From NCBI GenBank assembly GCA_964437335.1, contig CAYTGL010000001.1:2946-66945 (forward strand): 64,000 nucleotides of DNA, given 5' to 3'. This document shows, one piece after another, positions 26,254 to 46,117 of the stretch (the first letter of the stretch is position 1; every line of letters starts with the position of its first letter). The translations under genes and the position numbers were made by a program. The notes beneath the pieces were generated by a model. The model did no database searches. It was not told the origin of the DNA and saw only the letters and a list, made by a program, of their open reading frames with translations. Source of the stretch: an uncultured Chromatiales bacterium (GTDB lineage Bacteria; Pseudomonadota; Gammaproteobacteria; SZUA-140).

Positions 26254-26666
26254 TGCCCGCTGCTCTCCCTCGTCGCGACCGCGACGTTATTGACGCCGGC
26301 GAGCCGGGCCTGATCGACGACCTGGACGAGCAGGCCGGTGCGCGATTCCTCGTCGGCCAGCACGACGACCGAGCCTTCCGGGTGCTCGGCGTGCAGCCGG
26401 GAGACGTGGCTGCGTACGGTGCGCGGGTCGACGCGCTGGCCGTCGATCCAGACCTCGCCGTCGCGGGTCACGGCGATCAGGATGTTCGCGCGCTCCTGCG
26501 GCATCGCGGTCCGCGCGTCCGGACGATGGACCTCGATGCCGGCCTCTTTGACGAACGACGAGGTCACGACGAAAAAGAGCAGGATCACGAAGATCAGGTC
26601 GATCAGCGGCACCAGGTTGATCGACGGCTCCTCCTGATGCTGGTGGGAATGGGAAAGTCTACTCAT
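26250..26666 (-). CDS. exbD: biopolymer transport protein ExbD/TolR
   Basis: 138 aa. INLVPLIDLIFVILLFFVV signature. Confidence 0.9.
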   Translation of the reverse strand: MSRLSHSHQHQEEPSINLVPLIDLIFVILLFFVVTSSFVKEAGIEVHRPDARTAMPQERANILIAVTRDGEVWIDGQRVDPRTVRSHVSRLHAEHPEGSVVVLADEESRTGLLVQVVDQARLAGVNNVAVATRESSGQ

Positions 26667-27213: not shown

Positions 27214-27222
27214 CGGCCGTTC

Positions 27223-29393: not shown

Positions 29394-29438
29394 ATATGGT
29401 CGGTCTCTCATTTGCTGGTCGTAGTGGAATGAAGCTGT

Positions 29439-29559
29439 AGGGCGAGCGCAAGTGTTATTCGATAGCAGACTCCAAGATCCATGCGAATGATAATGATAAT
29501 AATAGCGCAAGTATCATTCGATAGAAGGCTCCAAGGTCCGGGTCAACGATAATGATCCG
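29439..29559. promoter_or_regulatory. tandem ~59-bp repeat, each unit ending in a Fur-box-like GATAATGAT(AAT) element
   Basis: Unit 1 at 29439-29497 (GCGCAAGTGTTATTCGATAGCAGACTCCAAGATCC...GATAATGATAATAATAG). Unit 2 at 29498-29556 (GCGCAAGTATCATTCGATAGAAGGCTCCAAGGTCC...GATAATGATCC). The Fur consensus begins GATAATGATAATCATTATC. Upstream of the ttpB operon. Confidence 0.45.
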
Positions 29560-29729
29560 GTGATGCTGTGCGGCAATGACCATGCAGAAGTACGGCATCA
29601 GGTATTACGACATATTATATATTATTATGGCTTGTTCCGTCTGAGACTTTACCGGATATCGGCAGTTGGCGTTCATTCCCGGTCGGGTTGGACTGTCAGG
29701 CGAGTAAGGTCAGACCGGGCGAGTATTGG

Positions 29730-30437
29730 TCAATCTATATCTATTGTGAAGGTCAGGTTGGCCGACAGCTTTTCAGTATCGGTGTCGGGATGATCCTTCA
29801 GACCGATCCGGTGATAGGCCAGGATGTAATGGAAGCCTTGATCCGGGACCGGCAGCGAGATCCTGCCTTCGCGATTCGTCAAAAACAGGTCGAAAACGCC
29901 GAGCATCTCGAGTTCGGCGCCGGCGAGCGGAGCGCCCTCATACATCACCTGGACTGACAATTCGTCACCCGGTTTAATCCGGAAGGGATTTTCGAGCGGG
30001 ATGATCTCGAGTCGAGCGCCGGTCGGCTTGTTTGCGGCCGGGCTCCAGCCGAGCAATGCCTTGGCGAACATTTTCTGATGCACTGAAGACCGGTAACCAG
30101 GCACCTCGTACTTTGGTTTGTTGACGGCGATCTCATTGGAATCCTCGGTCCAGATGCCGTGGTCGTAGTTGACGGAGACCAATAGGGTATCCGCCTTGGG
30201 GTTGACTACCACCTGGCTGTCTTTCACGCGGTATGCAAGGTCATGGCGTACGCCCTGCTGGTCTATTGCGGCAGCGCTGACGAGTTTGGCAGGGTCGTAT
30301 GATTCAAGCTCGCCCGGGTGGCCGAAAACAAGCATCAGGGTATTCCCTTCGCCCGGGATCAGCCAGACATCGTGGGCGCTGACGGGCAACAGGAGAGCAG
30401 AATTGATAAGTATTAAAAATAACCACTTATAAAACAT
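29730..30437 (-). CDS. DUF4198-domain periplasmic protein (Ni/Co-uptake-associated family), copy 1
   Basis: 235 aa. Signal peptide then HDVWLIPGEG...FGHPGE. Paralogous to ORFs at 40883-41584 and 52773-53552. Confidence 0.8.
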   Translation of the reverse strand: MFYKWLFLILINSALLLPVSAHDVWLIPGEGNTLMLVFGHPGELESYDPAKLVSAAAIDQQGVRHDLAYRVKDSQVVVNPKADTLLVSVNYDHGIWTEDSNEIAVNKPKYEVPGYRSSVHQKMFAKALLGWSPAANKPTGARLEIIPLENPFRIKPGDELSVQVMYEGAPLAGAELEMLGVFDLFLTNREGRISLPVPDQGFHYILAYHRIGLKDHPDTDTEKLSANLTFTIDID

Positions 30438-30515
30438 CTGCGATTCTCCATGACATATTGCATCGTGTGGAAAAATGGGTGACCGGCAACGGTGACGTGG
30501 TCATGAAGTGGCGAG

Positions 30516-30547
30516 CCACCCGGCGGGGGAGAATTGCCGCCGGGTGG
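30516..30547. repeat. palindromic element CCACCCGGCGG-N10-CCGCCGGGTGG (copy 1)
   Basis: Perfect 11-bp inverted repeat between TBDR1 stop and DUF4198-1 start. Near-identical copy at 40787-40818. Confidence 0.5.
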
Positions 30548-30567
30548 CCTTTGCCGGTTTGCTGCGT

Positions 30568-32700
30568 TTACATCTTCATGATCACGCCTGCGAACACGCT
30601 GGCCGGGGGACGCGTGTTGTAGGTGGTCGGCACCGTCGAGTTCTCGGCGCCGCCGGGACCGTCGGCATACTGCTCGTCGAGGATGTTGGTGAAGTCCACG
30701 TACCAGCGCGTGCTGCCGCCATTGGCGCCGGGGACGGTGTAGAACACCGTCGCGTCGACCACGTCGTAGCCCTCATAGGTGCCCGTATTGTTGTTATTGA
30801 CGTACATCTCACCCACGGTGCGCCATCTCAGCGTGCCACCCCAGCCCACGGCGGGGGCGTAGCTCGCCGTCAGGTTGGCAACGTAGTCCGGCACGCGCGG
30901 GATCTCGTTGCCCTCGAGGGCCGGGTTGTTGGGCCTCTTCACGATGTCCGAATCGAAGAAACCGAAGCCGGTGCTGAGCGTAAGGTTCGGCACTGCCTGC
31001 GGGAAGTAGCGGATCTCGCCCTCGATGCCGCTGCGGTCCGTCTCGCCGGCGTTCTGGAGCTGTGGCGGGTCACCTGCGGTCAGGAGCTCGTCCGAGCTGT
31101 TCAGCATGAAATAGACCAGGTCGAAGTACAGCGAGGGCGTGGGCGTGCCGCTGATCCCGAATTCGTACTGGGTGAACTTCACCGGGTCCAGGTTGACGTC
31201 TTCGGCTATGGAGCGCTGTTCGATGCTTGGTATCTGGAAGCCCTCCGCGTAGCTGGCGCGCAGCTCGAGGTTGTCGGTGATAGCGGAGCGCACGCCCAGC
31301 TTCGGCAGGAACGCGCTGTTATTGGTGTCGTAATCGGTCCTGTTGTCCAGCGGGTTGTCGGTCATGCCCTTGCCGGTTTGGTCGATGCTGTCGTAGCGGA
31401 AGCCGATCGTGGGCCGGAACAGGCGGTGGACGTCCAGATCCATCTGGCCGAACGCGGACGTGGTCTTCGTTACGAAGTCGCCGTCCCTCTGCAGCCGCTC
31501 GGGGATACCCTGGACGAAGCCGCGATCCTGCGCGTTGGTCCGGTACATGGTTTCGTCGGTCTCTTCATTGTAATACTCCGCGCCGAGCACCCAGTTGCTC
31601 GCGATGTTGCCGAAGGAGTTCACGCCGTTGAAGCTGAAGCCGAGCGCCCCCACGTTCCGATCATGTGACAGATCTCGCTGGCAGGACGTGGTCCCCGTCG
31701 TCAGGGTGGCGCAGATGGCCGGATCCGTGGTGACCGCGACGTCGGTCTCGAAGCGGCTCAGGAACATATCGGTCTGATAGGCCCAGGTCAGCAGCTTGAG
31801 ATGGTCGGAAAAGCTGTGGTTGAAATCGATGCGCTGGGAGTCATAGGTCTTCTCGGCCATGTCGCGCTGGGTCTGATGGATCGGCGATTGTTTGCGGGCT
31901 TCGTCCCAGCCCGCCTCGAACTGTTCGCCGGAGATGTTGCCTGGTACGTACGACCGCGCCCCGTGGCCGCGCAGAGACAGCGCGATCTCCGAGCGCTCGC
32001 CGAGCATGTACGAGGCCCGAAGGGCGAGGTTCATCTTGGTGAAACGCGAGTTGTCTCTCCAGCCTTCGTGCTCGTAGCCCTGAACGGCGCCGTTGAGCTG
32101 CACGGGGCCGATCAGGGGGGCGTCGACCTGGGTGCCGAAGGCCACTTGGCCGTCGTAAGTCCCCCATGAACCGCCAGAGAGGGATATGTCCGTGTACTCG
32201 CCGCCCTTGCGGGTCTGGAAGGCCATGACGCCGCCGCGCGCGAAGTTTCCGTACAGCGGCGAGACAGGCCCCTTATAAACAGTCAGACTTTCTATCTCGA
32301 GCGGGACGACGATATTGGTGTCGGCGTAGCCGTCGGAGTGGCCTTCCGCCTCGTTCAGGGTGATGCCGTCGAGCGAGAAGCCGAGGTCGCCGCCGTGGCC
32401 GCCGCTGGTCATGCCGCGGATAGTGACGAAGTCGCCGACGCTGCCGCCCTGGATGGAGCGGACCTCGACGCCCGGCGCCTCCTCGAAGATCTGCAGCGGG
32501 TTTTCCCAGCGCCTGGCCCCGATCTCGTCATGTCCGATTTGATTGACCGTGAACGCGCGGTCGGCGTCTCTCATGCCTTCGCCCTTGACGGTGATCTTGT
32601 CGAGCTCGACGTTCTCTGCCAAGGCGGCGCCTCCCGCGCCTGCTCCGAGCCCGCATACGATCGCGGCTATGACACTGTTCCTCAGTCGGTGATTAATCAT
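30568..32700 (-). CDS. TonB-dependent outer-membrane receptor (TBDR1)
   Basis: 710 aa. Signal peptide, TonB box/plug (DKITVKGEG), 22-strand barrel motifs. Confidence 0.9.
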   Translation of the reverse strand: MINHRLRNSVIAAIVCGLGAGAGGAALAENVELDKITVKGEGMRDADRAFTVNQIGHDEIGARRWENPLQIFEEAPGVEVRSIQGGSVGDFVTIRGMTSGGHGGDLGFSLDGITLNEAEGHSDGYADTNIVVPLEIESLTVYKGPVSPLYGNFARGGVMAFQTRKGGEYTDISLSGGSWGTYDGQVAFGTQVDAPLIGPVQLNGAVQGYEHEGWRDNSRFTKMNLALRASYMLGERSEIALSLRGHGARSYVPGNISGEQFEAGWDEARKQSPIHQTQRDMAEKTYDSQRIDFNHSFSDHLKLLTWAYQTDMFLSRFETDVAVTTDPAICATLTTGTTSCQRDLSHDRNVGALGFSFNGVNSFGNIASNWVLGAEYYNEETDETMYRTNAQDRGFVQGIPERLQRDGDFVTKTTSAFGQMDLDVHRLFRPTIGFRYDSIDQTGKGMTDNPLDNRTDYDTNNSAFLPKLGVRSAITDNLELRASYAEGFQIPSIEQRSIAEDVNLDPVKFTQYEFGISGTPTPSLYFDLVYFMLNSSDELLTAGDPPQLQNAGETDRSGIEGEIRYFPQAVPNLTLSTGFGFFDSDIVKRPNNPALEGNEIPRVPDYVANLTASYAPAVGWGGTLRWRTVGEMYVNNNNTGTYEGYDVVDATVFYTVPGANGGSTRWYVDFTNILDEQYADGPGGAENSTVPTTYNTRPPASVFAGVIMKM

Positions 32701-33192
32701 TATTCATTCGCCCCTTTGGTATGGTCATTGGTATCTGTCAATTAGTTCATCAGGCTCCTGTTTATCTCATGGAGACTGAGTAGATAATATTATAACATAA
32801 TAATTAATACTTTTAAATACAGTATGTACCAATATTAATACTGCAACAGCAGATTTGACTTGATTAGCGCCTGTTTCGAATCTACGTACCGGATCTTCTT
32901 TCGCTTCGGAACCTAGTACTTTCGTATGGTCAGTTACAGCGATTCACTACGATCTATGTCATTACATTTAATAAGTTTATTGGCCGCGCACGGTGGCAGT
33001 CATGCGTATTGGACGTGATTCAACCAGCGCTTGTCCGGCTAGCTTCAGCCAGTAATTACGAGAGGATTGCGGATACGACATTACGGTGTGCCGCACGTTG
33101 TTTCTTTGCAACACCTTGGGATACAACAGATGATTCCAACCACCAGCGAGAATCACAACGTCCGTGGGGTGAATAATCGCGATTAGTTTGTG
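32701..33192. repeat. copy 1 of a duplicated ~0.6-kb segment (TBDR leader), homologous to 43680-44195
   Basis: Alignable to the region upstream of TBDR2 along its length, with numerous substitutions and indels. Confidence 0.7.
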
Positions 33193-33318
33193 TTATTTGC
33201 GCCAGAATTCCGGCATCAACAGGACGAGGAGCGTGAAGATCTCGAGACGCCCAAGCAGCACCGCGAGCGCGCACGGCCACTTCGCGGCGGCATTAATGTC
33301 ATGGAATGTCACCGCAAC
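33193..33318 (-). pseudogene. remnant of trkH 3' end (last ~35 codons)
   Basis: FHDINAAAKWPCALAVLLGRLEIFTLLVLLMPEFWRK matches the C-terminus of the full TrkH at 44196-45641 (FHDINPTAKWLCTLAMLLGRLEIFTLLVLLTPEFWRK). Upstream part absent. Confidence 0.65.
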
Positions 33319-33364
33319 CGCGCCGAGGTGACCTATCCTCCGCCTAGGTAGCCAGAATGAGTGA

Positions 33365-34207
33365 TTATTCAGGTCTCCCAAGCTGGGGTGGGAGTTTTTC
33401 CATAAAATATTCAGCCGCTTGCATCAGCGACTTAGTATATGGATGTTTAGGATTGAATATAACCTCATCTCGACTACCAGATTCAACAATCTGGCCCTGA
33501 AACATTACAGCGACTTGACCGCATAACTGGTTTATGACTGCAATATCATGCGATATAAAGAGATAGGTTAAGTCATGTTTGACTTGCAAGTCTTTAAGTA
33601 AATTAACTATTTGTGATTGTATAGATTTGTCGAGCGAGGAGACAGGTTCATCACAAACTACCACTCGCGGATTTGACACGATTGCACGCGCTATACATGC
33701 ACGCTGTCTCTCTCCACCACTTAGCTGATGCGGATACGCATCAAGCAGTCGAAGTGGTAATTCAACATCATCAAATATCCTGATAATCCTTGTCTGTCGT
33801 GCTTTTTTATCGAGTAAAGTAAGGTTACTAAGTGGCTCCTCAATACTTCGCCTTATGGTCATCATCGGGTCCAGCGCCCCATAAGCATCCTGATAAATAA
33901 TCTGGACATCCTTGCGAAATTTTCTCAGCTCTTTTCTACCATAGCGGTCAATCCGCTTACCCATAACAGAAATATACCCTGCAGTGGGTTTCTCTAGCCC
34001 GAGTATTAGACGGGCTAGTGTACTCTTGCCAGATCCGCTCTCTCCGACCAAGCCATAGGCCTCGCCCTGACGAATCTTAAGTGATATGTCGCTTACGGCT
34101 TGTACGCGGGCACTCTGATTCCCAAAATAGCTACCTAAAGTTTGATAGCTTTTGGACAAGCTGAGGATTTGTACTGCAGGCTCTGCCCTATCCAACATTC
34201 TCATCAA
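33365..34207 (-). CDS. ABC transporter ATP-binding protein (OppF/DppF/NikE-like)
   Basis: Walker A GESGSGKST, signature LSGGERQR, Walker B. Low-GC codon usage. Confidence 0.9.
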   Translation of the reverse strand: MMRMLDRAEPAVQILSLSKSYQTLGSYFGNQSARVQAVSDISLKIRQGEAYGLVGESGSGKSTLARLILGLEKPTAGYISVMGKRIDRYGRKELRKFRKDVQIIYQDAYGALDPMMTIRRSIEEPLSNLTLLDKKARQTRIIRIFDDVELPLRLLDAYPHQLSGGERQRACIARAIVSNPRVVVCDEPVSSLDKSIQSQIVNLLKDLQVKHDLTYLFISHDIAVINQLCGQVAVMFQGQIVESGSRDEVIFNPKHPYTKSLMQAAEYFMEKLPPQLGRPE

Positions 34208-34216
34208 TCTGTAAAC

Positions 34217-35071
34217 CTACAATTGATTTCTTGCATAGGTATTAGAATTATTCTCAGTACCATAGCCTAATTGAGACTCCCGATTCAGCCTGGGCATTGC
34301 GTTCAACAGGGTCCTGGTATATGTGTCTCGGGGAGTGTTTAGAACCCTGTCAAGGTGATCATAGTCAACAAACCTACCACGATGCATGACCGCGATATGG
34401 CTCACAAGTCTGCTGACAAAACCAATATCATGACTGATAATAAGCATAGATAAATCAGTGTCTCTATGAATCTCCTCGAGGAGTTTTGTAATCTCTACTT
34501 GATTCAATAGATCAAGTGAGGAGGTTGGCTCATCAGCTATCAATAGTTTCGGCTCGAGTACAAGCGCAGCCGCTAATGCTACCCGCTGACACATACCACC
34601 ACTGAGTTCGAAGGCGTAACTATTCATTACCTCTTTTGCGCGGGGCATTTTCACGCGATCAAGAGCATTTAATATTTTCATGTGAGCTTCGCCTTGCGAT
34701 ATCGGATAATGCGTACGCAATACATGCTCTATCTGGCGCCCAATTCTTGCACATGGATTGAAGCTATTTTGCGGCGACTGGAAAATCATGCCGATTTCTT
34801 TCCCTCGAATAGCTTCCCAATATTTATCACTCCTGCTCTGCAGTGGCTCGCCTTGATATTTCACTGTACCGTTTATTATCTGCCCAGGACGATCAAGCAG
34901 GTAAAGAAGTGCAAGAGCCAAGGTGCTCTTTCCAGATCCGCTCTCACCTACGACACCCAATATTTCACCGGTGTTCAGCGATAAACTCACGTCATTCACT
35001 GCACGCAGTCTTCCGCTAGCTAGGATGTAATCTACACTAAGATGTTCGATTTCCAGAATTGGTGCTTTCAT
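34217..35071 (-). CDS. ABC transporter ATP-binding protein (OppD/DppD/NikD-like)
   Basis: Walker A GESGSGKST, signature LSGGMCQRV. Low GC. Confidence 0.9.
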   Translation of the reverse strand: MKAPILEIEHLSVDYILASGRLRAVNDVSLSLNTGEILGVVGESGSGKSTLALALLYLLDRPGQIINGTVKYQGEPLQSRSDKYWEAIRGKEIGMIFQSPQNSFNPCARIGRQIEHVLRTHYPISQGEAHMKILNALDRVKMPRAKEVMNSYAFELSGGMCQRVALAAALVLEPKLLIADEPTSSLDLLNQVEITKLLEEIHRDTDLSMLIISHDIGFVSRLVSHIAVMHRGRFVDYDHLDRVLNTPRDTYTRTLLNAMPRLNRESQLGYGTENNSNTYARNQL

Positions 35072-35956
35072 TTAATTTTCTGCTCTATTCCTAGGGTCGA
35101 TGCCATCACGCAACCCGTCACCCACGAGGTTGATTGACATTACCGTGAGCATAATCATTACCCCAGGGAAAATGACGTTCCACCACGCCCCACTCATGGC
35201 AGCGCTTAGACCATTACCCAGAAGATTTCCCCAGCTGGACACTGTTGAGGGGACACCTAAATTGATAAAGCTTAATGTTGCTTCCAGGGTAATCGCCTGA
35301 CCAATACTAACGGTTAATATCACAAGCAATGGCCCCATCAGATTAGGCAGGATATGATGCATAATCAATTTCAGCACTCCACATCCAGCTGTGATAGATG
35401 CGCGGATAAAATCGGTTTCCATCAATCGTCTGCACTCAGTACGAACAACGCGGGCGACGCCCATCCAGCTAACCAGCGCGATCGATAACGTAATTTTAGT
35501 GAGACTCAGTTCTCCAGATGCTTGTATCAGGATTACATACAAAATCACTGGTATGGAAAGAATCGTATCCAGTACCTGCATCAGTACTTGATCCAGCCAG
35601 CGCGGACCTAACCCGCTTAATAACCCATAGAATATCCCGGCAAATCCAGCAATTATGATCGCCATCAATCCAACTAGCAGTGATAATCTGCCACCCAACA
35701 TGACCCTATCAAAAAGATCTCTTCCCAGATGATCTGTTCCGAACCAATGCATACTTGAGGGAGGTGCATACATCATAGCGGTATCTGTCATGCTATTCCC
35801 GACGTTCACCAATGGATAAAGTATACAAAGTGCACTTATTATTACTAAAAGCACAAGTCCCATCATGGCTAAGCGATGGGAACGTAACGTTAATACTATC
35901 CACGGCTTCCGCACCGCTATCGGCCCCCGTTCTATGAGCGATTTTTCAGCGGACAT
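35072..35956 (-). CDS. ABC transporter permease (OppC/DppC/NikC-like)
   Basis: 294 aa, six TM helices, BPD_transp_1 pattern. Confidence 0.9.
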   Translation of the reverse strand: MSAEKSLIERGPIAVRKPWIVLTLRSHRLAMMGLVLLVIISALCILYPLVNVGNSMTDTAMMYAPPSSMHWFGTDHLGRDLFDRVMLGGRLSLLVGLMAIIIAGFAGIFYGLLSGLGPRWLDQVLMQVLDTILSIPVILYVILIQASGELSLTKITLSIALVSWMGVARVVRTECRRLMETDFIRASITAGCGVLKLIMHHILPNLMGPLLVILTVSIGQAITLEATLSFINLGVPSTVSSWGNLLGNGLSAAMSGAWWNVIFPGVMIMLTVMSINLVGDGLRDGIDPRNRAEN

Positions 35957-36911
35957 ATTGTCTCCGCAGTCTAGGATCGAATGCGGCTATTAAGCAGTCA
36001 GCTAGCAGGTTACCCGCGATTATCAAGATGCCTGTGACTAGAGTGCATGCCATTAGTACAGGATAGTTCCGTCCAATTGCGCTCTGTAAAAACAATCGCC
36101 CTATACCCGGCCATCCAAACACCCATTCAACGACATAGACACTACCAATTAGTAGTGGCAATGAAAAACCAACCCACGTAATAAAGGGTGTGAGCGCATT
36201 TGGCATTAAATGACGAAATATAAGATCGTATTTTCTTATTCCTCTTGAACGCGCGGCACGAATGTAATCCATGGTAATAGTATCGCGTATACTACCTCTC
36301 ATAAGGCGCAGATAAGGACCTAACTGAGTCAACACGATGGTAGCCACAGGCAATACAAGGTGGGAGGCCAAATCGTAAAAATTATCATTGATGCCAATCG
36401 TTGACATACCCGAAGATGGAAAAAGTCCCAAGCCAACGGAAAACATCAGGATTAACATCAGACCAAGCCAGAATGGGGGAATGGAAAAGCTGACTAGTGC
36501 GATTCCACTGATTGAATAATCAATCGTGGTGTGAGGATTCGCTCCGGCTAAGTACCCAAGATAAATGCCTAATATGATAATCAATACCCAGGCACTTCCA
36601 ACCAGAATCAGGGTATTTTTCAACGAGGACAACACAACACCTTGAACCTTCCTACCATCCTTTAAGGAATAACCCCAATCACCCTGAACCATGCGATTCA
36701 GCCACAAACCATATTGAACAGGTAGCGGTTGGTCTAGCCCCAAATTATGTCGAACACGCTCATAGTCATCGAGTGTCATATTCTCACGCCCGCCTACAAG
36801 ACTGGGAACAGGATCGCCGGGCATCGATTTGATTATTACAAATGCTAATAGACTTATCAGCAACAGTTGGGGTATTACCCCGAGCAGTCGAGTTGCGATA
36901 AATCTAATCAT
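35946..36911 (-). CDS. ABC transporter permease (OppB/DppB/NikB-like)
   Basis: 321 aa, six TM helices. N-terminal MIRFIATRLLGVIPQLL typical of DppB. Confidence 0.9.
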   Translation of the reverse strand: MIRFIATRLLGVIPQLLLISLLAFVIIKSMPGDPVPSLVGGRENMTLDDYERVRHNLGLDQPLPVQYGLWLNRMVQGDWGYSLKDGRKVQGVVLSSLKNTLILVGSAWVLIIILGIYLGYLAGANPHTTIDYSISGIALVSFSIPPFWLGLMLILMFSVGLGLFPSSGMSTIGINDNFYDLASHLVLPVATIVLTQLGPYLRLMRGSIRDTITMDYIRAARSRGIRKYDLIFRHLMPNALTPFITWVGFSLPLLIGSVYVVEWVFGWPGIGRLFLQSAIGRNYPVLMACTLVTGILIIAGNLLADCLIAAFDPRLRRQYVR

Positions 36912-38500
36912 CGGGAGTTTCCTGGCAATTTATCCCACTTCTCAACATTCCACAGGGGGCTCGATCCATGCCCCATGACTCGTTGCTCGAAGCCGCTGAA
37001 CCCCTTTCGCACTGCGTAGATATGCTTGAGATAGACCAGATAGTTCAGCGGTGGATCATTGACCATTTCTCGCTGTATCTCTTGGTAGAGAGCCTTACGT
37101 TTTTCTGGATCTATCTCCTCACGGGCCTTCTTTAGTAAGATATCCACTTTTTCATTTTTATAACCGCTGTAGTTCATTCCGGAAAATTGCAAATCGCTTG
37201 AAAAATACTTGTAGAGGTCATCGTCTGGATCTCCGGGATACCCCAATCCAAGTATTATTGAAGAAACATCGCGAATATTAAACGAGGCGAAGTCTTTGAT
37301 CTGTACTTGCACATCAAAGCCCGCACGCTTGAGTTGCTCAGCCAGCAGAATAGCGAGATCCTGTCTTTCAGGTTCATTGCTGGGGGCTACTAACGCAATC
37401 GAAAAACGCTCGCCATTTTTCTGGTAAATTCCATCACTGCCGCGCACCCACCCGGCCTCCTTCATCAAGCTCTCTGCCTTGCCGGGATTATTATCATGAT
37501 GAGACATCTCCGGGAATGAAATATCATGCATCTGTAGCGGTCCATATGCAGGTACTCCATAACCCAGGAGCGCGCCGGTTACGAGCGCCTTGCGATCCGT
37601 CGCGTATTGAAGTGCCTGGCGAACCTTAATATCCCGAAAAATAGGGTAGCGATGATTAGTCATCATCGCTCGATAATCTGTTGAGTTAACCGTCTCTATT
37701 GTGAAATTATCGGCCCCTTTCAACGCCTGAACCTGCTTGGGTTTAATCTCTGTAATATCGACCTCTCCATTTTTCAATTGAACCAGTCGAACATTAGAGT
37801 CCGGTATAAACTTGTAGACTAATCGATCCAGTTTGGGCCGCCCATCGTAAAATTGGGAATTGGCCTCGAACACCATATATTCACCGCGCTTCCACACACT
37901 TAATTTGAATGGTCCGGTTCCAATAGGGCTTTCATAGTTGAATGGATCAGTATTGAAATCCTTGCCTTCCAAACGGTGACGCGGAATCATGCCAATTTTT
38001 AGCTTACTGGGAAGGGCGGCGAGTGGCCTGTGCAGAACGATACGAATCGTGAGCGGATCGATAGCATCTACTCTCTTGATCTCCTCAATCAGTTTTCTGG
38101 CGCCACTACTATTTTTTGGATCAAGTATCGCCTCGATTGTGAACTTGACATCATCTGCGGTAAATTCAACACCGTCGTGCCATTTAATATTTGGCTTTAG
38201 GATAATGATGTATTCCAGGCCATCTGCAGACATGGCCCAGGATTTTGCCATGTCAACCACGACACGGTTATCTTTGTCCAGTTTGAATAAGCCTCTGAAA
38301 AGCGCCATATCGGAATCGGGATGTTGATGCCCTGCCACAGGGTTCAGCCATTCAGGTTCTGATGGCATTGCAATAGTCAGAGTCTTTATTGCCGATCTAT
38401 TCTCATCTTTTTCTGTCTGACCACAACTCAACAGGATAAAAGTGGCGGCGAGCAGGAAGCTGATGTTTCTGTACTTAACGGCATAATATTTTAGTGTCAT
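36908..38500 (-). CDS. family-5 solute-binding protein (Opp/Dpp/NikA type), predicted lipoprotein
   Basis: SBP_bac_5 fold. Start placed at MTLKYYAVKYRNISFLLAATFILLSCGQ, which has a lipobox (LLSC). The ORF track's TTG start at 38572 is less likely. Low GC. Confidence 0.85.
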   Translation of the reverse strand: MTLKYYAVKYRNISFLLAATFILLSCGQTEKDENRSAIKTLTIAMPSEPEWLNPVAGHQHPDSDMALFRGLFKLDKDNRVVVDMAKSWAMSADGLEYIIILKPNIKWHDGVEFTADDVKFTIEAILDPKNSSGARKLIEEIKRVDAIDPLTIRIVLHRPLAALPSKLKIGMIPRHRLEGKDFNTDPFNYESPIGTGPFKLSVWKRGEYMVFEANSQFYDGRPKLDRLVYKFIPDSNVRLVQLKNGEVDITEIKPKQVQALKGADNFTIETVNSTDYRAMMTNHRYPIFRDIKVRQALQYATDRKALVTGALLGYGVPAYGPLQMHDISFPEMSHHDNNPGKAESLMKEAGWVRGSDGIYQKNGERFSIALVAPSNEPERQDLAILLAEQLKRAGFDVQVQIKDFASFNIRDVSSIILGLGYPGDPDDDLYKYFSSDLQFSGMNYSGYKNEKVDILLKKAREEIDPEKRKALYQEIQREMVNDPPLNYLVYLKHIYAVRKGFSGFEQRVMGHGSSPLWNVEKWDKLPGNSR

Positions 38501-38550
38501 AATGCAATACATTTCTCCAGATACCGGGTTTATGTATTTATCGATACATA

Positions 38551-38597
38551 TGTGACCGTTCTGGCTGATCAAAATCAGCCAGAACGGTCACACAGGA
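38551..38597 (-). terminator. 18-bp perfect hairpin downstream of TBDR3
   Basis: GTGACCGTTCTGGCTGAT-caaa-ATCAGCCAGAACGGTCAC lies ~20 nt after the TBDR3 stop. Overlaps the alternative TTG start region of the SBP gene. Confidence 0.5.
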
Positions 38598-38614
38598 TCT
38601 ACAGCGACTCAGAA

Positions 38615-40627
38615 TTAGCCGAAGAAGTACTTAAAGCCAACCTCGGCTTCTAGCTTCGGAATGGGCGCATAGAAAACGCCGCCGAAATCGAACATGGGTT
38701 CGGCAGTATCTTCATCCGGTTGATATACAAATGCAGCATAGGTGGACCACCGGTTCTTGTCGAAACTAACCTTGCCCATGTAACGCCAGAACGGATCACG
38801 CATCGTGCTTCCAGTTGAGTTGAGCGGGGTATCGCCAAGCTGCTGACCGTATAGATCGACAACAACGCGAGCATTGTCCATTAACGGTTTGAACCAGGTT
38901 CCGCCGACTGTCAGATAGTTTTCAGGTAGCCCGGATAGTTTATTAGCATCCGGCGAACTTGGTGTTTTATTTTTTGCATCAACTGCGGAATATGTAACAA
39001 ACAAGGATAAGGCACTGGTGGGATTGTAGGTTAATATCATGTCAAAACCGTTTCTTTCAATTTCGCCTACGTTGACTGCTTCCTCAGCGATGACATTAAT
39101 CTCGTCTTCTGTGGTACTCCAATAGTAGTTGAAATCTAAGCTCACTTGCGGATTAAATAAGACATTAAATCCGACATCAGTGCTAACTATCTTGGGCATA
39201 TTCAAGTCGAAGTTAGCATTTCCTGTTACAGGAGAAATCTCTGATACTTCCGGGGTACGGAATCCTTGACCGCTATTGGCATAAATTACAATGGTATCAC
39301 TTGGTGACCAGGTTATTCCAAGCTTAGGACTTAGTAAATCGGCATTTCCTGTTCCAGAGTTAGCAGGCGTAATATTATTAGTGATGTCCGAATCATAAGT
39401 GTCATACCGCAAACCACCATGAAGTTTTACTCGTTCTAGAATCTGATATTGAGCTTGGGCAAACAGTCCAATGCTTAACTCATTAATATCCCAATCACTG
39501 TTTACAGCTCCGGTTTTGTCACGATCGAGGGTGGGAAAGCTTTGAAGTATCATGTCATCGTAACGTCCATCTGTACCGACAGTAATAAGATATTTGTTTC
39601 CGGGTAAAAAGTTGTAAAGGACGTTCCATCCAAAATAGCTATTCTCATTATGATTCAAGCTTTGTGGGCTGTTGAACGATGAATACCGATTCAATTCCTT
39701 ATCAGATAGATACACTGTGCCATGCCAACCAGACTCGCCAGGAGACGAGTCGTAGCGTATTGCGAGATTTATCGCGTTACTGTCGCCACCGTCTGACGGT
39801 TGGGAAGACCCTATTGGTATTGTAGCCGCTGTCCGTGGGATCACACCATTGATCACATCATCCAGCAATATATACCCGGGCGCATCCCATTCCTCATTAA
39901 CAAGGTGTGCCACAATCGACACATCACCTCCCATGGATGCAATTGTTGCCTTATTATAAAGGTTGTAGCGTGTGTCCTCGCTGTTATCCCTATAGCCTTC
40001 CTTGTCGCGGAACTCATACATTAAAAATGGTGTGACATTACCATGAGTTTCATTATAAGTCCCAACGGCGCGCATATACTTGTAACTGCCAATTTCCGCA
40101 CCTGCACTCGAACCAGCATTGCGTGATTTTGTTATTATGTTAACGGCACCACACAATGCGAAGTTCCCATATAAAGCTGATATGGGTCCCTTGATAATTT
40201 CAATTCGCTCGACCATCTCCGGCGTAATCCAGGCAAAATCACCGTAACCATGAGCCTGACCATGATTTGGCATGTTCATAGGTACGCCATCTACATGTAC
40301 AGCGATTTGATTTGTATGGCTCCCGGATGTACAACCCCGCATTGCCAAACCGTCTGCTATACCACCCTGGCCATAAGGTTGTGTATTCATACCGGGTTGT
40401 TTTCGAAACAGATCGAGATAGTTCGTTACTGGCATAGTATCAATCTGCTGAGAGTCGATGATTAGAACAGATCCTGGCAAGGCTTCTGTAGATGTTGAGA
40501 TAGCCGCCTTTTCTTCTCCTCCTACAACAGTCATGGCTGGCAGAGTTTCTACGTCAGCAGAATATGCAGTTGAAAATATCACAGCAGACATAACCAAAAT
40601 GCATGCTAGAAAAAGTTTTTGCGACAT
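38615..40627 (-). CDS. TonB-dependent outer-membrane receptor (TBDR3), low GC
   Basis: 670 aa. Signal peptide, plug domain, barrel ending ...FKYFFG. Confidence 0.9.
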   Translation of the reverse strand: MSQKLFLACILVMSAVIFSTAYSADVETLPAMTVVGGEEKAAISTSTEALPGSVLIIDSQQIDTMPVTNYLDLFRKQPGMNTQPYGQGGIADGLAMRGCTSGSHTNQIAVHVDGVPMNMPNHGQAHGYGDFAWITPEMVERIEIIKGPISALYGNFALCGAVNIITKSRNAGSSAGAEIGSYKYMRAVGTYNETHGNVTPFLMYEFRDKEGYRDNSEDTRYNLYNKATIASMGGDVSIVAHLVNEEWDAPGYILLDDVINGVIPRTAATIPIGSSQPSDGGDSNAINLAIRYDSSPGESGWHGTVYLSDKELNRYSSFNSPQSLNHNENSYFGWNVLYNFLPGNKYLITVGTDGRYDDMILQSFPTLDRDKTGAVNSDWDINELSIGLFAQAQYQILERVKLHGGLRYDTYDSDITNNITPANSGTGNADLLSPKLGITWSPSDTIVIYANSGQGFRTPEVSEISPVTGNANFDLNMPKIVSTDVGFNVLFNPQVSLDFNYYWSTTEDEINVIAEEAVNVGEIERNGFDMILTYNPTSALSLFVTYSAVDAKNKTPSSPDANKLSGLPENYLTVGGTWFKPLMDNARVVVDLYGQQLGDTPLNSTGSTMRDPFWRYMGKVSFDKNRWSTYAAFVYQPDEDTAEPMFDFGGVFYAPIPKLEAEVGFKYFFG

Positions 40628-40786
40628 TATTCTCCCCTCACAGTTATTTTCCTGTAACTGTTAATCGTGAACGAGCGTTCAATTTCCCGCATGACTCATT
40701 CGCCCCCTTGTATGGTTATTGGTATCTGTCAATCAGTTCATCAGGCTCAGCTTCCTATCTAATAAGAGATTGAGTCAGAGGTGGCG

Positions 40787-40818
40787 GGCCACCCGGCGGG
40801 GGAGAGGATCCGCCGGAT
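40787..40818. repeat. palindromic element CCACCCGGCGG-N10-CCGCCGGATGG (copy 2)
   Basis: Near-identical to 30516-30547. Lies between DUF4198-2 stop and TBDR3 start. Confidence 0.5.
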
Positions 40819-40882
40819 GGCTTACGCCGGGCACTGCATTTATTTCGTTCAGACCTACAGGGTCATCAACGAAATTCTCCTG

Positions 40883-41584
40883 TTAACGGAAGAAGGTGAG
40901 ATTGGTCTCCAGCGCTAGTGTGTCAGCGTCAGGGTGATTTTTCAGGGTTTCCTTATGCCTTGCCAGGATGTACTGAAAACTGTCCGCTGATATCGGTAGC
41001 GAGGCCTTGCCGTCGGCATCGGTCTTGTGCAGCGTTTCGTCGCCAAGTATCTCGATCTCTGCGCCTGAGAGAGGCTTTGATTTGTACAGCAACTGTACGG
41101 GCAGAAGTTCACCGGGCTTCAATGCAAGAGGGTCCTTGAGCGGCAGGATTTCAAAGTCCGCGCCGACCGGCTTGCCTGCTGTCTGACTCCAGGAGACGAT
41201 CATCTTGTTGAATTTCATGGAATGCATTGATGCCTTGTAATTTGGCACTTCCCGCTTTGAAACATTGAAATATTTTTCATTCTGGTCTTCGGTCCAAAAC
41301 CCATTGTCGAAATCCGTGATGACCAGTGACAACCCGCCAGGAAATTCAGCGAACAGCTGTTCATTGTGCACATGAGTCTTGATCTTGCCTCTGGCACCGT
41401 CTTTGTTGATGCCGGTTACTGATTTTGCTTTAGCCGGTTCATAGGGTTCGGGTTCGCCGGGATGGCCATAAACAAGCCGATAATTTTCCCCGTCGGGCAC
41501 GAACCAGACATCATGTGCCGATGCAGTGGCGGCAAATACGATCGATAAGGCTGTCAGTATGAGAAATATTCGTAATATTTTCAT
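40883..41584 (-). CDS. DUF4198-domain periplasmic protein, copy 2
   Basis: 233 aa, signal peptide, HDVWFVPDGENYRLVYGHPGEPEPYEP. Paralog of 29730-30437. Confidence 0.8.
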   Translation of the reverse strand: MKILRIFLILTALSIVFAATASAHDVWFVPDGENYRLVYGHPGEPEPYEPAKAKSVTGINKDGARGKIKTHVHNEQLFAEFPGGLSLVITDFDNGFWTEDQNEKYFNVSKREVPNYKASMHSMKFNKMIVSWSQTAGKPVGADFEILPLKDPLALKPGELLPVQLLYKSKPLSGAEIEILGDETLHKTDADGKASLPISADSFQYILARHKETLKNHPDADTLALETNLTFFR

Positions 41585-41659
41585 GGTTCTCCTCGGTGTG
41601 ATTATATGTGCTGGGCGGCCGTGTCAACGATGTGACCGCCCGGTAACCTGCTGGACCAA

Positions 41660-43679
41660 CTACATCGATATCGAAATACCCATCATGAAATTGATTGGTG
41701 GGCGCGGTGTATAGAGGTCTTCGAAAGCTGCTTCGGAGTACACCTCATCCGTCAGGTTGTTGATATCGAGAAACCAGCGCGCATACTTGCCCTGATCAAG
41801 CGGCACGGCGTAGAACACGCTGGCGTCTAGGACATCGAAGCCGTCATATTTGACGGTATTCGCAGCGTTGAGATAGGAAGATCCAATGGAGCGCCAGCGC
41901 AGACTACCGCCCCAGCCGGACGGAGGTGCGTAGTTGAGGCTGATCGTTACAATATGATCCGCTGATCCCTCGATCTCATTACCAACCAGTGTAGCATCCG
42001 GATTGCTTAGGATCTCGCTATCCGGCAGCGCAAAGATTGCGGAGACGCTGAAGTTGTTTATTGCCTGCGGGAAGTACCGGACCTCACCCTCCAGACCGCT
42101 GCGACGTGTTTTGCCGACATTGCGGAACTGCGATGATCCCGGCGGATCCTCGAGAATCTCGTCGGAGCTGTCAAGAATGTAGTAGGCGAGATCCAGGTAC
42201 CATTGCGGGCTCGGCGTGCCGTTGATGCCCACTTCGTATTGCCAGTACTGGATTGTGTCAACATTGATGGTAGGATCGTATTTCGACTCGCCATCGGGTA
42301 ATCCGAAACCGTCGGCGATGCTGCCACGCAACTCCCAGTTTTCATGGAACGCCGAACGCACACCGAGCTTCGGGCTGATGTGGTCATAACTGTTATCTTC
42401 GTTGAAAGGCGTTCCGCTGGGATCCCGGTTGAGATAGGAACCATTGTAGTTGTCATAGCGAACCCCAAGGGTCGGACGGAATAGCGGACTGATATCCATA
42501 TCGATCTGTCCGTAGATCGATGCGGTTTGGCTGTCGAAGACTCGATCTTCGATCTGGTCGATGCGCACCCGATTGCTGGTGTCCCAGCGCAGCCAGTCGG
42601 TCTCTTCGGTGTAATATTCGAAGCCCACTACCCAGCTGCTGGGAATATTGAAAAGGGTCCGGGAACCATTCAGGCTGCCGCCGGTGGCAATGGCATTGCG
42701 GCCGTAAAAGCGTTCGGTCTGGCCGCCGGGGTCATAGCCGAACTTGGCGAAGCGAGTAAAGTCATTGCTGGTGCCATAGAGAAACAACAGCATTCTGAGA
42801 TCATCGTCAACGTCATAAAACCAGTCAAGACGCTGGTTATAATACTGCTTGTGCCCGCCGTCGTTCTCGGCATTGATGGCCTGCTGTCTGCGGACGCTTT
42901 CGTCCCCGCTCTTGAACTGTTCTTCAGGAATATAGCCCGGGGCATCCCACTGACCGCCATAACCACGCATCGTCAGTACCACTTCGGAACGGTCACTGAC
43001 ATCGTAGCCGAGCCGCAGCGAGGCATTGGTTTTAGTGAAGCGCGAGTTCTCGCGCCAGCCTTCGCTGTCATAGGCCTGGAGCGCCAAGTTGGCCTTGAAT
43101 GGACCGATCTCTCTGCCCATGGCTGCCTGGGCATCAAAGGTTTTGTACATGCCGCCGGAGAGATAGGCGTCGTTATAGTTACCGCCCTTGCGGGTCGTGA
43201 AGGCCAGCACACCGCCGCGGGCATAGTTGCCGTACAGTGCCGACCGGACCTCTGTAGACAGTCAGGGAATCGATCTCGAGCGGTATGATGCTGTTGGTGT
43301 CGGCATATCCGTCGGCATGGGATTCGCCTTCGTTGAGACTGATGCCATCGAGGGTGATTGCGGCGTCACTGCCGTGTCCGCCTGTCTGGAACCCTCGTAT
43401 CGTAAACTGATCGGCGACGCCACCTTGCTGGTAGACGCCCAGATCAAGCCCCGGGACTTCTTCAACCAAGCGTAGCGATTGATCCCAGGAACGGGAACGG
43501 ATCACGTCTGAACCTATGGTGTTGACACTGAACGAGCGATCGGCCTCCCTCATGCCTTCACCCTTTACGGTAATTTTATCGAGATCGACGTTGTCCGCCA
43601 GTGCGGCGCCTCCCGCTGCTGCCCCGATTCCGTATAAGATCGCGGCTAAGACGCTTCTCCTCACTAGGTGATTAATCAT
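41660..43679 (-). pseudogene. TonB-dependent receptor (TBDR2) disrupted by a frameshift near 43235
   Basis: N-terminal 166-aa ORF (43179-43679) and C-terminal 516-aa ORF (41660-43210) are collinear with TBDR1. They are out of frame at ...VYRGPVG|ALYGNYARGGVLAFTTRKGG, where TBDR1 has the in-frame motif GPVSPLYGNFARGG. Confidence 0.7.
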
Positions 43680-44195
43680 TTCTCATTCGCTCCCTAGAAT
43701 GATTATTGGTTATTCGTCAAACAGTTCATCAGGATCAGTCTCCTGCCATGGAAACTGAGTTCGTAATATGTTAACGTAATATTTATTACTTAGACAAGCG
43801 GTATGTATTATTAAGAATACTGCATCCTAGATTCGCCAAGTTGGTTTCTGTTTCAAATCGACGTATCGATCTTCCGCCGCTTCAGAACCCAATACTCTCG
43901 GCCGGTTCAGAATCTAGTACTTTCGTATGTTCCGTTACAGCAGTTCACTTTGGTCCATATCATTATATTCTATAAGTTTATTATTCCAGGCACGGTGACC
44001 GTCATGCGCATTGGACGCGAAATAAGCAGCGCTTCCCCGGCTCGCTTCAGGCAGTAATTACGGGAGAATTACGGATTCGACATTTCGGTGTGCTGTATGT
44101 TGTTCCTATACAACACAGTGGCGTATCACTGATGATTCGAACCGCCAGCGGGAATCACGCCACCCGATGGGGCGAATGATCGCGATATATTTGTA
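43680..44195 (-). promoter_or_regulatory. conserved long 5' leader of TBDR2; candidate cis-regulatory RNA with cobalamin-riboswitch-like motifs
   Basis: Transcript-sense sequence contains GGGTGGCGTGATTCCCGCTGGCGG...GCCACTGTG...GCCTGAAGCGAGCCGGGGAAGCGC. These are reminiscent of the B12 aptamer core (GGTG.A..TCCCGC...GCCACTG...GGGAAG). Not validated. Confidence 0.3.
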
Positions 44196-45641
44196 TTATT
44201 TGCGCCAGAATTCCGGCGTCAGCAATACCAGCAGCGTGAAGATCTCAAGTCGCCCGAGCAGCATCGCGAGTGTGCACAACCATTTCGCGGTCGGGTTGAT
44301 ATCGTGGAAGGTGGAAGCGACCTCGCCCAGGCCGGGACCGAGGTTGTTCAGGCTCGTCGCGACCGCGCCGAACGCGGTGACCTGGTCGACGCCGGTCGCC
44401 ATCAGGGCAAGCACCAGTGCGGCGAAGATCATGATGTAGATCGAAAAGAAACTCCAGATCGCGTCCAGCACGAGTTTTGGTACCGGACGGTCGCCGATCT
44501 TGATCGGCCGGACCAGTTGCGGGTGAATCAGGCGCTGCAGCTCGCGAATGCCGACCTTGGCAAGCACGATGATCCGGATCGCCTTGATTCCGCCTGACGT
44601 CGACCCGGCGCAACCACCGAAGAAGCTGACAAAGATCAGCAGCATTGGCAGGCCCAGCGGCCAGACCGCGAAATTCCCGGTGCTGAAGCCGGTTGTCGTG
44701 ATCACCGAGACGACCTGGAAGGCCCCGTGGCGCAGGGAATGGGCCCATGTCGGGTATTGCTCGCCGAGCCATAGGAACATCCCGGTCAGCAGCGCGAATC
44801 CGAGTACGGTCAGCAGAAATACCCGCGACTGAGTGTCGTGCCAGTAGACCGAGGGACTCGGTCCACGCAGCGCCATGAAGTGAACACTGAAACTCAACGA
44901 GCCTATCAGCATGAACACGATCGCAATGATCTCGATGGCGAGGTTGTCGAAATGGCCGATGCTTGCATCGTGGGTCGATAAACCGCCGGTTGAGACGGTC
45001 GACATGCTGTGGGCAATTGCGTCGAACAGCGACATGCCGGCTAGCCAGTACGCGGCCGCACAGGTCACGGTCAGCGCGAAATAGATGATCAGCATGAAGC
45101 GTGCGGTCTGGGCAATGCGCGGGGTCAGCCTCTCGTTCTTCATCGGTCCCGGGGTCTCGGCCAGGTAGAGCTGCATGCCACCGACGCCGAGCATCGGCAG
45201 GATCGCGACCGCGAGCACGATTACGCCGAGGCCGCCAAACCACTGGAGCTGCTGGCGGTAATACAGGATCGAGAGCGGCAGGTTGTCGATGCCGACGATC
45301 GCGGTTGCGCCGGTCGTCGTGAAGCCGGAGACCGCCTCGAACACGGCGTCGGTCAATATGAGATCGGTGCCAAGCAGCAGCGGGATGCTACCGAGTGTCC
45401 CGAGCAGTACCCAGAACAGCGAGACGATGAGAAAGACTTCGCGATTGTAGAGATTGCCACGATGCCGACGCGTCGGCAGCCACAGCAACAGCCCGGGCAG
45501 CGCGAGAATCAGCACGCTTTCCAGGAAAATGATTAACTGACCGTCATTTCCCCACGCGGCAAGCAACGCTGGCGGGATCAGCGTCAGGCTGAACAGTAAC
45601 AAAAACAGGCCGACGAGACGGATGACGAAGGCAGGCCGCAT
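44196..45641 (-). CDS. trkH: Trk-type potassium uptake protein TrkH
   Basis: 481 aa polytopic membrane protein with TrkH/KtrB fold. Confidence 0.9.
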   Translation of the reverse strand: MRPAFVIRLVGLFLLLFSLTLIPPALLAAWGNDGQLIIFLESVLILALPGLLLWLPTRRHRGNLYNREVFLIVSLFWVLLGTLGSIPLLLGTDLILTDAVFEAVSGFTTTGATAIVGIDNLPLSILYYRQQLQWFGGLGVIVLAVAILPMLGVGGMQLYLAETPGPMKNERLTPRIAQTARFMLIIYFALTVTCAAAYWLAGMSLFDAIAHSMSTVSTGGLSTHDASIGHFDNLAIEIIAIVFMLIGSLSFSVHFMALRGPSPSVYWHDTQSRVFLLTVLGFALLTGMFLWLGEQYPTWAHSLRHGAFQVVSVITTTGFSTGNFAVWPLGLPMLLIFVSFFGGCAGSTSGGIKAIRIIVLAKVGIRELQRLIHPQLVRPIKIGDRPVPKLVLDAIWSFFSIYIMIFAALVLALMATGVDQVTAFGAVATSLNNLGPGLGEVASTFHDINPTAKWLCTLAMLLGRLEIFTLLVLLTPEFWRK

Positions 45642-45999: not shown

Positions 46000-46117
46000 A
46001 ATGGCAGCCCGTGCCGGTCCCCTCGCAACGGCAGGTTGTAAACCCCGTCAGGCCCGGGAGGGAGCAGCGGTAGCAACTGATACGTGTGCCGGGGTGTGGC
46101 GGGTACGGGTTGCCACC
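46000..46117 (+). ncRNA. ffs: signal recognition particle RNA (4.5S, ffs)
   Basis: Domain IV consensus GTCAGGCCCGGGAGGGAGCAGC, then ...GATACGTGTGCCGGGGTGTGGCGGGTACGGG, matches E. coli 4.5S GUCAGGUCCGGAAGGAAGCAGC...GACGCGUGUGCCGGGAUGUAGCUGGCAGGG. 5'/3' ends pair. Conserved position upstream of dnaX. Ends approximate. Confidence 0.7.

Follow-up and report, generated by a model that had tools for sequence, protein, structure and literature searches.

Overall organization of the locus

The window analysed here is a whole 64-kb stretch of DNA from a Chromatiales-like gammaproteobacterium with a GC content of ~62%. On its minus strand, genes for TonB-dependent receptors (TBDRs), DUF4198 proteins and an ATP-binding cassette (ABC) importer are placed between trkH and a TonB2-type energising operon (Table 1). 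This is probably a locus for TonB-dependent divalent-metal uptake that occupies a recombination-prone slot, and a mosaic of separately acquired parts rather than the product of one block duplication. The minus-strand gene order was reproduced by an open reading frame (ORF) map and Pfam scans, in agreement with an earlier interpretation made from the letters of the DNA (the sequence-only reading), and the TBDR and DUF4198 profiles match the proteins that had been called as such. The three receptors that it listed were all found. TBDR1 and TBDR3 carry PF07715 and PF00593 in one polypeptide each, and TBDR2 possesses both domains in two frames.

The composition of the locus falls into three strata by GC content at the third codon position (GC3). 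GC3 is 0.40–0.49 in the genes of a low-GC cassette (0.41 in TBDR3), compared with 0.77–0.89 in the neighbouring host-like genes; the values are 0.86 for TBDR1, 0.62–0.67 for TBDR2 and 0.57 for DUF4198-2. The related loci used for comparison (numbered with the prefix L) are from scans of species-representative genomes, metagenomes and Logan assemblies, and most of them belong to Chromatiales or to unclassified gammaproteobacterial metagenome-assembled genomes.

Table 1. Features of the locus in the window
Feature	Position	Strand	Evidence
trkH, intact, 481 aa	44196–45641	−	Pfam TrkH, E 3.7e-88
Leader B, 516 nt, 44% GC	43680–44195	−	Aligns with leader A
TBDR2, frameshifted TonB-dependent receptor	41660–43679	−	Plug ORF 43179–43679, barrel ORF 41660–43210
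DUF4198-2, predicted periplasmic metal-binding protein	40883–41584	−	Pfam PF10670, E 9.5e-24
Palindrome copy 2, GC-rich	40778–40830		11-bp stem, one mismatch
Third, partial leader copy, ~85 nt	40627–40775	−	84% identical to leader A positions 412–489
TBDR3, receptor of the low-GC cassette	38615–40627	−	Plug and barrel by Pfam
Hairpin between TBDR3 and the binding-protein gene	38529–38611	−	Perfect 20-bp stem, 4-nt loop
Five-gene Nik/Opp/Dpp-type ABC importer	33365–38572	−	Pfam SBP_bac_5, two BPD_transp_1, two ABC_tran
Dead trkH 3' fragment, last 44 codons and stop	33193–33330	−	tblastn
Leader A, 492 nt, 42% GC	32701–33192	−	Aligns with leader B
TBDR1, intact chimeric receptor	30568–32700	−	Plug and barrel by Pfam
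Palindrome copy 1	30505–30557		Between TBDR1 and DUF4198-1
DUF4198-1, predicted periplasmic His-brace metal-binding protein	29730–30437	−	Pfam PF10670, E 1e-22
Control region of the TonB2-type operon	29440–29560	−	GATAAT hexamer repeats and two ~36-nt direct repeats
TonB2-type energising operon	24415–29393	−	DUF3450, large MotA/ExbB (TtpC-like), ExbB, ExbD, TonB, TPR

The direct repeat and the trkH fragment

The sequence-only reading described 32701–33318 as a diverged copy of 43680–44310. BLASTN recovers this copy and extends it to ~0.8 kb: 32543–33328 and 43522–44331 are 74.3% identical over 814 columns (E 7e-151, 519 bits), whereas 100 shuffles gave at most 26.5 bits. The ungapped blocks of the repeat are 71–81% identical. 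The repeat is limited to a piece of trkH, the leader and ~50 codons at the 5' end of the receptor gene. The remnant of the trkH 3' end is present as proposed, with 44 codons rather than the ~35 that had been estimated. Its translation is 82% identical to TrkH residues 438–481 (tblastn, E 1.5e-16). At the nucleotide level, 30 of 132 positions differ from the intact copy (8, 4 and 18 at the first, second and third codon positions), so that third positions are 59% identical. The copies of the repeat differ by ~25%, which points to an old repeat or to an origin in another lineage. The fragment is about equidistant from the intact trkH of the window and from the trkH of L006, the closest relative, and these two intact genes encode proteins with 87% identity. 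This suggests that the repeat event may be as old as the split from L006, or that another lineage contributed one of the copies. We also considered that the intact trkH might have a mosaic breakpoint, with its 3' end as donor DNA, but no such breakpoint was seen and the whole gene has a host-like GC3.

Identity along the two units is uneven. In sliding windows, most of the trkH fragment and distal leader show 73–84% nucleotide identity, and the proximal leader 62–71%. The first ~100 nt of the receptor, with the start codon, signal peptide and TonB box, reach ~80%. Identity is 54–74% in the plug and about 50–60% through the barrel and DUF4198. Functional genes have therefore diverged far more than the adjoining non-coding DNA and a dead piece of trkH, and a single duplication followed by drift cannot yield this pattern. 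The segmental duplication of a DUF4198-TBDR-leader-trkH' unit that the sequence-only reading had deduced is not supported, because of this unevenness and because outside homologues are closer (62–90% amino acid identity) than the two copies are to each other.

Both palindromes noted earlier were also found. Copy 1 has a perfect 11-bp stem at 30516–30547 with a 10-nt loop, and the two copies are 81% identical. Copy 2 follows DUF4198-2 and is hence out of register with copy 1 by ~730 nt. The palindrome is not a dispersed REP element, as the window contains only two copies, both in the locus, and the related loci contain none.

TBDR1 and TBDR2

TBDR1 has a homologue in L013 that is 90% identical overall. 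The first 30 residues of TBDR1, however, are 70% identical to TBDR2 and only 58% identical to the L013 homologue, and they share the four-residue signal-peptide insertion of TBDR2. After residue 30, the identity to L013 is 77–100% in each 30-residue window, and mostly 90% or more. The DNA sequences are mostly 93–98% identical from ~32610 to ~30575, just before the stop codon, whereas the identity is 37–69% upstream of the receptor body and <45% after the stop. The two crossovers are sharp and are located at the TonB-box motif (DKITVKGEGMR) and at the stop codon. The C-terminus of TrkH from L013 is 73% identical to that of the window. The sharp drop of identity at both ends of the body and the distant trkH of L013 indicate that the exchange between distant lineages was confined to the mature receptor body; with crossovers at these positions, the leader and the signal peptide stay in place. 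At the sequence level, these comparisons show that TBDR1 is a recent chimera of an L013-like mature body with the resident leader and signal peptide.

TBDR2 is frameshifted, as had been recognized from the sequence alone. It consists of a 2-nt gap, equivalent to a +1 shift, at ~43243 in comparison with TBDR1 and with the close homologues, which are all intact with ~670 aa. The frameshift is also present in the Logan contig L012. TBDR2 is either a pseudogene or a gene needing frame correction. The repaired protein has 673 aa and is 46% identical to TBDR1, while its intact homologues are 74–77% identical to it. The best of these, in L015 (77%), matches only from residue 29 and has another leader, another signal peptide and another neighbourhood. 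A comparable relationship is seen for the adjoining genes: DUF4198-1 and DUF4198-2 are 44% identical to each other, whereas DUF4198-1 is 62% identical to its L006 homologue and DUF4198-2 is 67% identical to the gene that adjoins the TBDR2 homologue in L002. As TBDR1 and TBDR2 each have their own closer homologues elsewhere (75–90%), the protein comparisons show them, and likewise the two DUF4198 genes, to be old paralogues. TBDR3 is only 23% identical to TBDR1.

The receptor slot in related genomes

Among the relatives, both flanks of the locus are conserved: ffs-dnaX-ybaB-recR and trkH form one, and the TonB2-type operon forms the other. In L001, L006, L007 and L014, this operon likewise follows the receptor slot. 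The content of the slot differs. L006 has the order trkH-TBDR-DUF4198-TonB2 with a single TBDR and a single DUF4198 gene; an arrangement of this kind had been predicted as the ancestral one, and it does exist. L001, L007 and L013 have a TBDR1-like gene after trkH, followed by another receptor gene (TBDRx) and in some cases by a DUF4198 gene. In L002, trkH is followed by a TBDR2-like gene (75%), a DUF4198-2-like gene (67%), a TBDRx gene and a TBDR1-like gene (75%). A Nik-like cassette was not found at this slot in L001, L002, L006, L007 or L013, and a trkH remnant was not found in 12 distinct related loci. In the receptor arrays of other genomes, which we considered as possible carriers of repeats of the leader or of the trkH fragment, only coding-region paralogy was seen. 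The slot between trkH and the TonB2-type operon would thus be one that swaps receptor cassettes through recombination.

The ffs gene, encoding the bacterial small SRP RNA, is located at 46012–46108 on the plus strand (63.4 bits), directly upstream of dnaX-ybaB-recR, and the ffs-dnaX synteny is shared with L001, L002 and L006. Two proteins near the locus have no Pfam match: one of 134 aa (48709–49113, plus strand) encoded between recR and a gene for an Rrf2-family regulator, and one of 275 aa (23618–24445, minus strand) encoded downstream of the TPR gene. Related receptor/ABC cassettes are located beside class I ribonucleotide reductase genes in L017 (2071–2355) and L015 (1006–2118). L017 also has a cobalamin riboswitch (90.6 bits) upstream of nrdAB, with metE close by. 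A cobalamin riboswitch acting on the related cassettes was rejected, as this sole match is upstream of nrdAB and not of the receptor.

The low-GC cassette

The low-GC insertion reported earlier is real and has sharp borders: 33331–40689 (7.4 kb) has a GC content of 45.1%, compared with 62% outside the locus. It comprises TBDR3 and the ABC genes for a binding protein (36908–38500/38572), two permeases (35946–36911 and 35072–35956) and two ATPases (34217–35071 and 33365–34207). Its upstream edge is a relic leader start codon, and its downstream edge is the dead 44-codon trkH fragment. The block contains these six transport genes only, without mobility genes, and no tRNA gene was found in the window. 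The base composition supports the view that the cassette is foreign, a putative island acquired horizontally.

The best NCBIfam matches of the ABC components are NikB, NikD, NikE, Opp2 and Opp4, all below the equivalog cut-offs (NikE 262 against 333, NikD 234 against 319, Opp2B 267 against 350, and NikA 167 against 393). These scores place the importer in the Nik/Opp family, with nickel as a putative substrate. As in NikABCDE systems (Nik/Opp/Dpp, PepT family), an SBP_bac_5 protein is combined with two permeases and two ATPases, with a TBDR directly upstream. Nickel TonB-dependent transporters known so far include FrpB4, NikH, CntO and the NikR-linked receptors Bll6948 and Daro_3944 (PMC11247825). 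In contrast to NikR-controlled NikABCDE systems, the window contains no nikR homologue, the cassette is compositionally foreign, and no nickel equivalog cut-off is reached. The cassette also differs from known NikABCDE systems in being flanked by two further receptors and DUF4198 proteins. NikR half-site pairs of the E. coli type (GTATGA/TCATAC) were not found in the window with an N11 spacer, the E. coli operator having N16.

The same six-gene cassette is present in L011, another metagenome contig, with 70% identity for the receptor and 78% for the binding protein. There, at 8218–8536, a gap of ~250 nt separates the end of the cassette from the 3' end of trkH, which is convergent, and kdpF lies on the other side of the cassette. 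Because it lies beside trkH in convergent orientation, the same cassette has landed next to trkH twice, in opposite orientations. In L017, Nik-like ABC genes are preceded by a TBDR2-like receptor gene (52%), and in Nitrosospira sp. Nl5 (L018), which has a binding-protein orthologue with 59% identity, the ABC cassette is directly followed by nikR.

The feature between TBDR3 and the ABC genes, previously read as a terminator, is a perfect 20-bp hairpin (38529–38611; minimum free energy −50.9 kcal/mol, z-score −6.9). It has no U-tract and was not called as an intrinsic terminator; it is probably an attenuator or a stabiliser. An Rfam match of this hairpin to the microRNA precursor mir-7131 was sub-threshold and was dismissed as spurious.

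DUF4198 proteins and the TonB2-type operon

DUF4198-1 and DUF4198-2 score 81.8 and 85.1 bits against PF10670, for which the cut-off is 34. DUF4198-1 matches the structure of NikK/IsDUF4198 (PDB 9gcb) with E 7.3e-28; His22 of the query corresponds to His1 of the chain, and the histidine of the GHP motif is conserved. DUF4198-2 has the same ligand motifs, reading SAHDVW...GHPGE, and a predicted mature N-terminus of HDVW. Cleavage of the signal peptide would therefore expose an N-terminal histidine in these proteins. IsDUF4198/NikK binds nickel with a Kd of 18 nM (PMC12537917), and Zcp of Neisseria gonorrhoeae is a zinc-capture DUF4198 protein (PMC12663993). The proteins of the window resemble both in PF10670 membership, in a signal peptide followed by an N-terminal histidine (AHDVW), and in the GHP ligand histidine. 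Their genes also adjoin TonB-dependent receptor genes, as in the IsDUF4198/NikK and Zcp family. Zcp is monocistronic and Zur-regulated, whereas the DUF4198 genes of the window are paired with receptors.

Three DUF4198 paralogs had been counted earlier. There are three in the window, but only two are within the locus. The third (52773–53552, minus strand; 132.5 bits) is 25% identical to DUF4198-1 and is located ~7 kb beyond trkH and ~9 kb from DUF4198-2, where it stands alone by genes for cytochrome c7-like and QueG-like proteins; its GC3 is a host-like 0.79.

The TonB2-type operon was confirmed by Pfam in the order DUF3450, large MotA/ExbB, ExbB, ExbD, TonB and TPR, so that the dedicated energising system which the sequence-only reading placed beside the receptors is present. 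TonB2-type systems of Vibrio and other marine gammaproteobacteria have the order TtpB/DUF3450-TtpC-ExbB2-ExbD2-TonB2-TtpD. The operon of the window has the same six-gene order and domain content. Unlike its Vibrio-type counterparts, it is the fixed downstream boundary of a slot whose receptors vary.

The repeats that had been read as Fur boxes are present as an array of GATAAT hexamers at 29483–29507. The array has 14 of 19 matches to the Fur consensus and is found upstream of the TonB2-type operon only. Two ~36-nt direct repeats (GGAyCTTGGAG...CTATCGAATrAyACTTGCGCT) bracket it at 29440–29560 on the minus strand. With a start at 29510, the longest DUF3450 ORF would extend over these direct repeats, and the real start is therefore probably at 29393; in contig L019 the protein is called with 263 aa.

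Metal specificity

In the mechanism that we propose, the TonB2-energised receptors would carry a metal or a metal chelate across the outer membrane, the DUF4198 proteins would capture the metal in the periplasm via an N-terminal histidine brace, and the NikA-like binding protein would act with the NikBCDE-like permeases and ATPases to import it. Expression would come from AT-rich metal-regulated promoters, and TBDR2 would be currently inactive. The sequence-only reading had called the locus a specialised one for Ni/Co/Fe chelates; its parts fit dedicated TonB-dependent metal uptake, while the metal specificity can only be inferred.

Nickel, or nickel and cobalt, is the substrate that we tentatively favour from these comparisons. 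It is supported by the match of DUF4198-1 to 9gcb with both ligand histidines and by the presence of nikR after the Nitrosospira cassette. Several observations weigh against it: no NCBIfam nickel equivalog cut-off is reached, nikR is lacking in the window, the TonB2-type operon carries a Fur-like box, and TBDR1 and TBDR2 score best, below the cut-off, against a siderophore-receptor model (TIGR01783). Because of the last two, iron stays a serious alternative, although a rather unlikely one in our estimate. The locus would then be an ordinary Fur-controlled iron-siderophore or haem cluster, in which the Nik-like ABC importer takes up a ferric chelate or a peptide. The best match of TBDR3, a haem/haemoglobin receptor model (also below its cut-off), is in line with such a cluster, and DUF4198 genes are induced by iron starvation in some bacteria (PMC12663993, discussion). 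However, the locus contains no siderophore-type binding proteins or FecCD permeases, and DUF4198-1 retains the histidines of the nickel site. Moreover, Nik and Opp2 nickel models give the highest scores for the ABC components, and it is nikR that adjoins their orthologues in Nitrosospira.

Origin of the locus

New cassettes probably recombined in at a shared leader and thereby duplicated this anchor sequence. The ~0.8-kb repeat would be a scar of cassette recombination, as would the partial third copy of the leader (85 nt). The route may have been homology-facilitated illegitimate recombination, or a circle with a homologous leader may have integrated by a single crossover. Campbell-type and homology-facilitated illegitimate recombination leave insertion scars, and here too duplicated anchor sequence flanks the inserted DNA. 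Hypervariable receptor loci shaped by recombination are known from the pyoverdine-receptor regions in Pseudomonas. The locus resembles these in its conserved flanks, interchangeable receptors and sharp-edged allele replacement, and differs from them in having its crossovers at a TonB-box motif and a stop codon and in lacking mobility genes.

Some points weigh against this mosaic origin. The order and mechanism of the insertions are not uniquely reconstructable, and the search for related genomes yielded none with an intermediate arrangement or a leader homologue. The island is not marked by an integrase, a transposase or a tRNA, and we infer its entry route. The comparison of the trkH fragment is based on 132 nt, too few to decide the age or origin of the repeat.

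In our view, it is unlikely that the whole unit was duplicated once in tandem in this lineage, with subsequent divergence of the copies or replacement of their coding bodies and with later insertion of the low-GC cassette at the joint. Such a duplication would account for the colinearity of the two units at a nearly constant offset of ~11.0 kb, for the presence of leader, receptor, palindrome and DUF4198 gene in either unit, and for the similar identity (74–81%) of the leader, the trkH fragment and the palindrome; the single-unit arrangement of L006 would provide its starting point. However, the coding parts have diverged far beyond the leader and the dead trkH piece, which is the opposite of the expectation. 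TBDR1, TBDR2 and DUF4198-2 are closer to homologues in other genomes (67–90%), L002 already holds TBDR2-like and TBDR1-like genes without the leader repeat, and the palindromes are out of register. To fit these data, whole-unit duplication needs at least two later body replacements, and it then merges with the mosaic model.

A stronger version of the mosaic model is conceivable but rather doubtful at present. The leader, the signal peptide and the TonB-box stretch after trkH may be a fixed expression platform and recombination anchor in this clade, upon which only mature receptor bodies and whole transporter cassettes are swapped among lineages through homologous recombination.

The leader region

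Leader A contains a strong promoter-like site (TTTAAA-17-TATAAT with TG, 32817–32789), and leader B has a degenerate sigma-70-like promoter at the same position. Leader B also has a local tandem duplication of ~24 nt (GrTTCTGAAsCGGCsGA..., 43860–43920, minus strand) that is absent from leader A and that is the cause of the only large indel between the two copies. Both leaders share a direct repeat of ATATTAY with a spacing of 13 nt. Apart from copies A and B, the window contains the leader only as a partial copy of 85 nt. The partial copy spans the predicted transcription start to the ATG, and a three-way alignment defines a core of the 5' untranslated region (5'UTR) that is common to all three receptors. 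Its similarity to the other leaders stops at the relic ATG (40692–40690), and no promoter-like site was found at this copy. The relic receptor ATG and its Shine-Dalgarno sequence (40627–40692, minus strand) open a 21-codon upstream ORF, MREIERSFTINSYRKITVRGE, the stop of which overlaps the start of TBDR3 (TAATG), so that translational coupling is possible.

At a threshold of at least 15 of 23 matches to the gammaproteobacterial Zur-box consensus, the 64-kb window has only three sites, at 32784–32806, 43763–43785 and 29609–29631. All three are in AT-rich promoter regions of the locus and may reflect either an operator or a bias from AT-richness; those at the receptor promoters are weak (15–16 of 23) and lie in AT-rich DNA.

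We treat the leader as an ordinary promoter/5'UTR region kept through common descent. That it has been retained as a functional cis-regulatory element, such as a new metal-sensing RNA or a docking site for a small RNA or a regulator, rather than as a mere scar, is very improbable. The leader copies are about 72–80% identical, compared with 59% at third codon positions of the trkH fragment, the 5'UTR core is common to three receptors, and some compensatory pairs are predicted. In two-sequence consensus folds, however, these pairs are few and equally frequent on both strands, and the consensus fold of the 5'UTR is only −5 kcal/mol. A known riboswitch in the ~0.5-kb leader was ruled out by Rfam, which gave no match for leader A or leader B, whether at the gathering threshold or at E ≤ 1. 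A structured RNA was likewise rejected, with fold z-scores of only −1.9 for leader A and −1.5 for leader B, as was a small conserved leader ORF, none being common to copies A and B. The identity between leaders A and B is lowest within the 5'UTR itself, and the lengths of identical runs appear to match uniform drift. By BLAST, leader homologues were absent from 10 of the 12 distinct related loci (all but L017 and L018), including those of the TBDR1 (90%) and TBDR2 (77%) homologues; the loci had been gathered via the receptor protein rather than by a direct nucleotide scan of the collections.

Support for the assembled arrangement

Two contigs from run SRR16798009 match the window at 100% identity, and each contains one junction of the island (L012 covers 45524–34238 and L019 covers 34256–20568). 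Both junctions are therefore inside single independent contigs, and the arrangement is not an assembly artefact. A low-GC block wrongly joined to a high-GC contig at the repeats during assembly or binning is a negligible concern even for a metagenome-derived genome with repeats flanking the block, because the repeats (~74% identical) are too diverged for misleading an assembler, and the break of the independent assembly within the block (34238–34256) falls between two ATPase genes whose order is the same in the L011 cassette.

Implications

All components of the locus are from known families, and hypervariable receptor loci are known as well; therefore, it does not represent a new kind of system. 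Its most notable feature is the precise swap of a receptor body. The locus provides a clean worked example of how a TonB-dependent uptake locus diversifies, with fixed flanks, a precise body swap and the recruitment of a foreign Nik-like cassette. It also gives genomic-context support to the recent proposal that DUF4198 proteins are periplasmic handlers of nickel or zinc that work with TonB-dependent receptors. If the platform model were true, it would describe a cassette system free of mobility genes that diversifies outer-membrane receptors and leaves duplicated copies of the platform behind.

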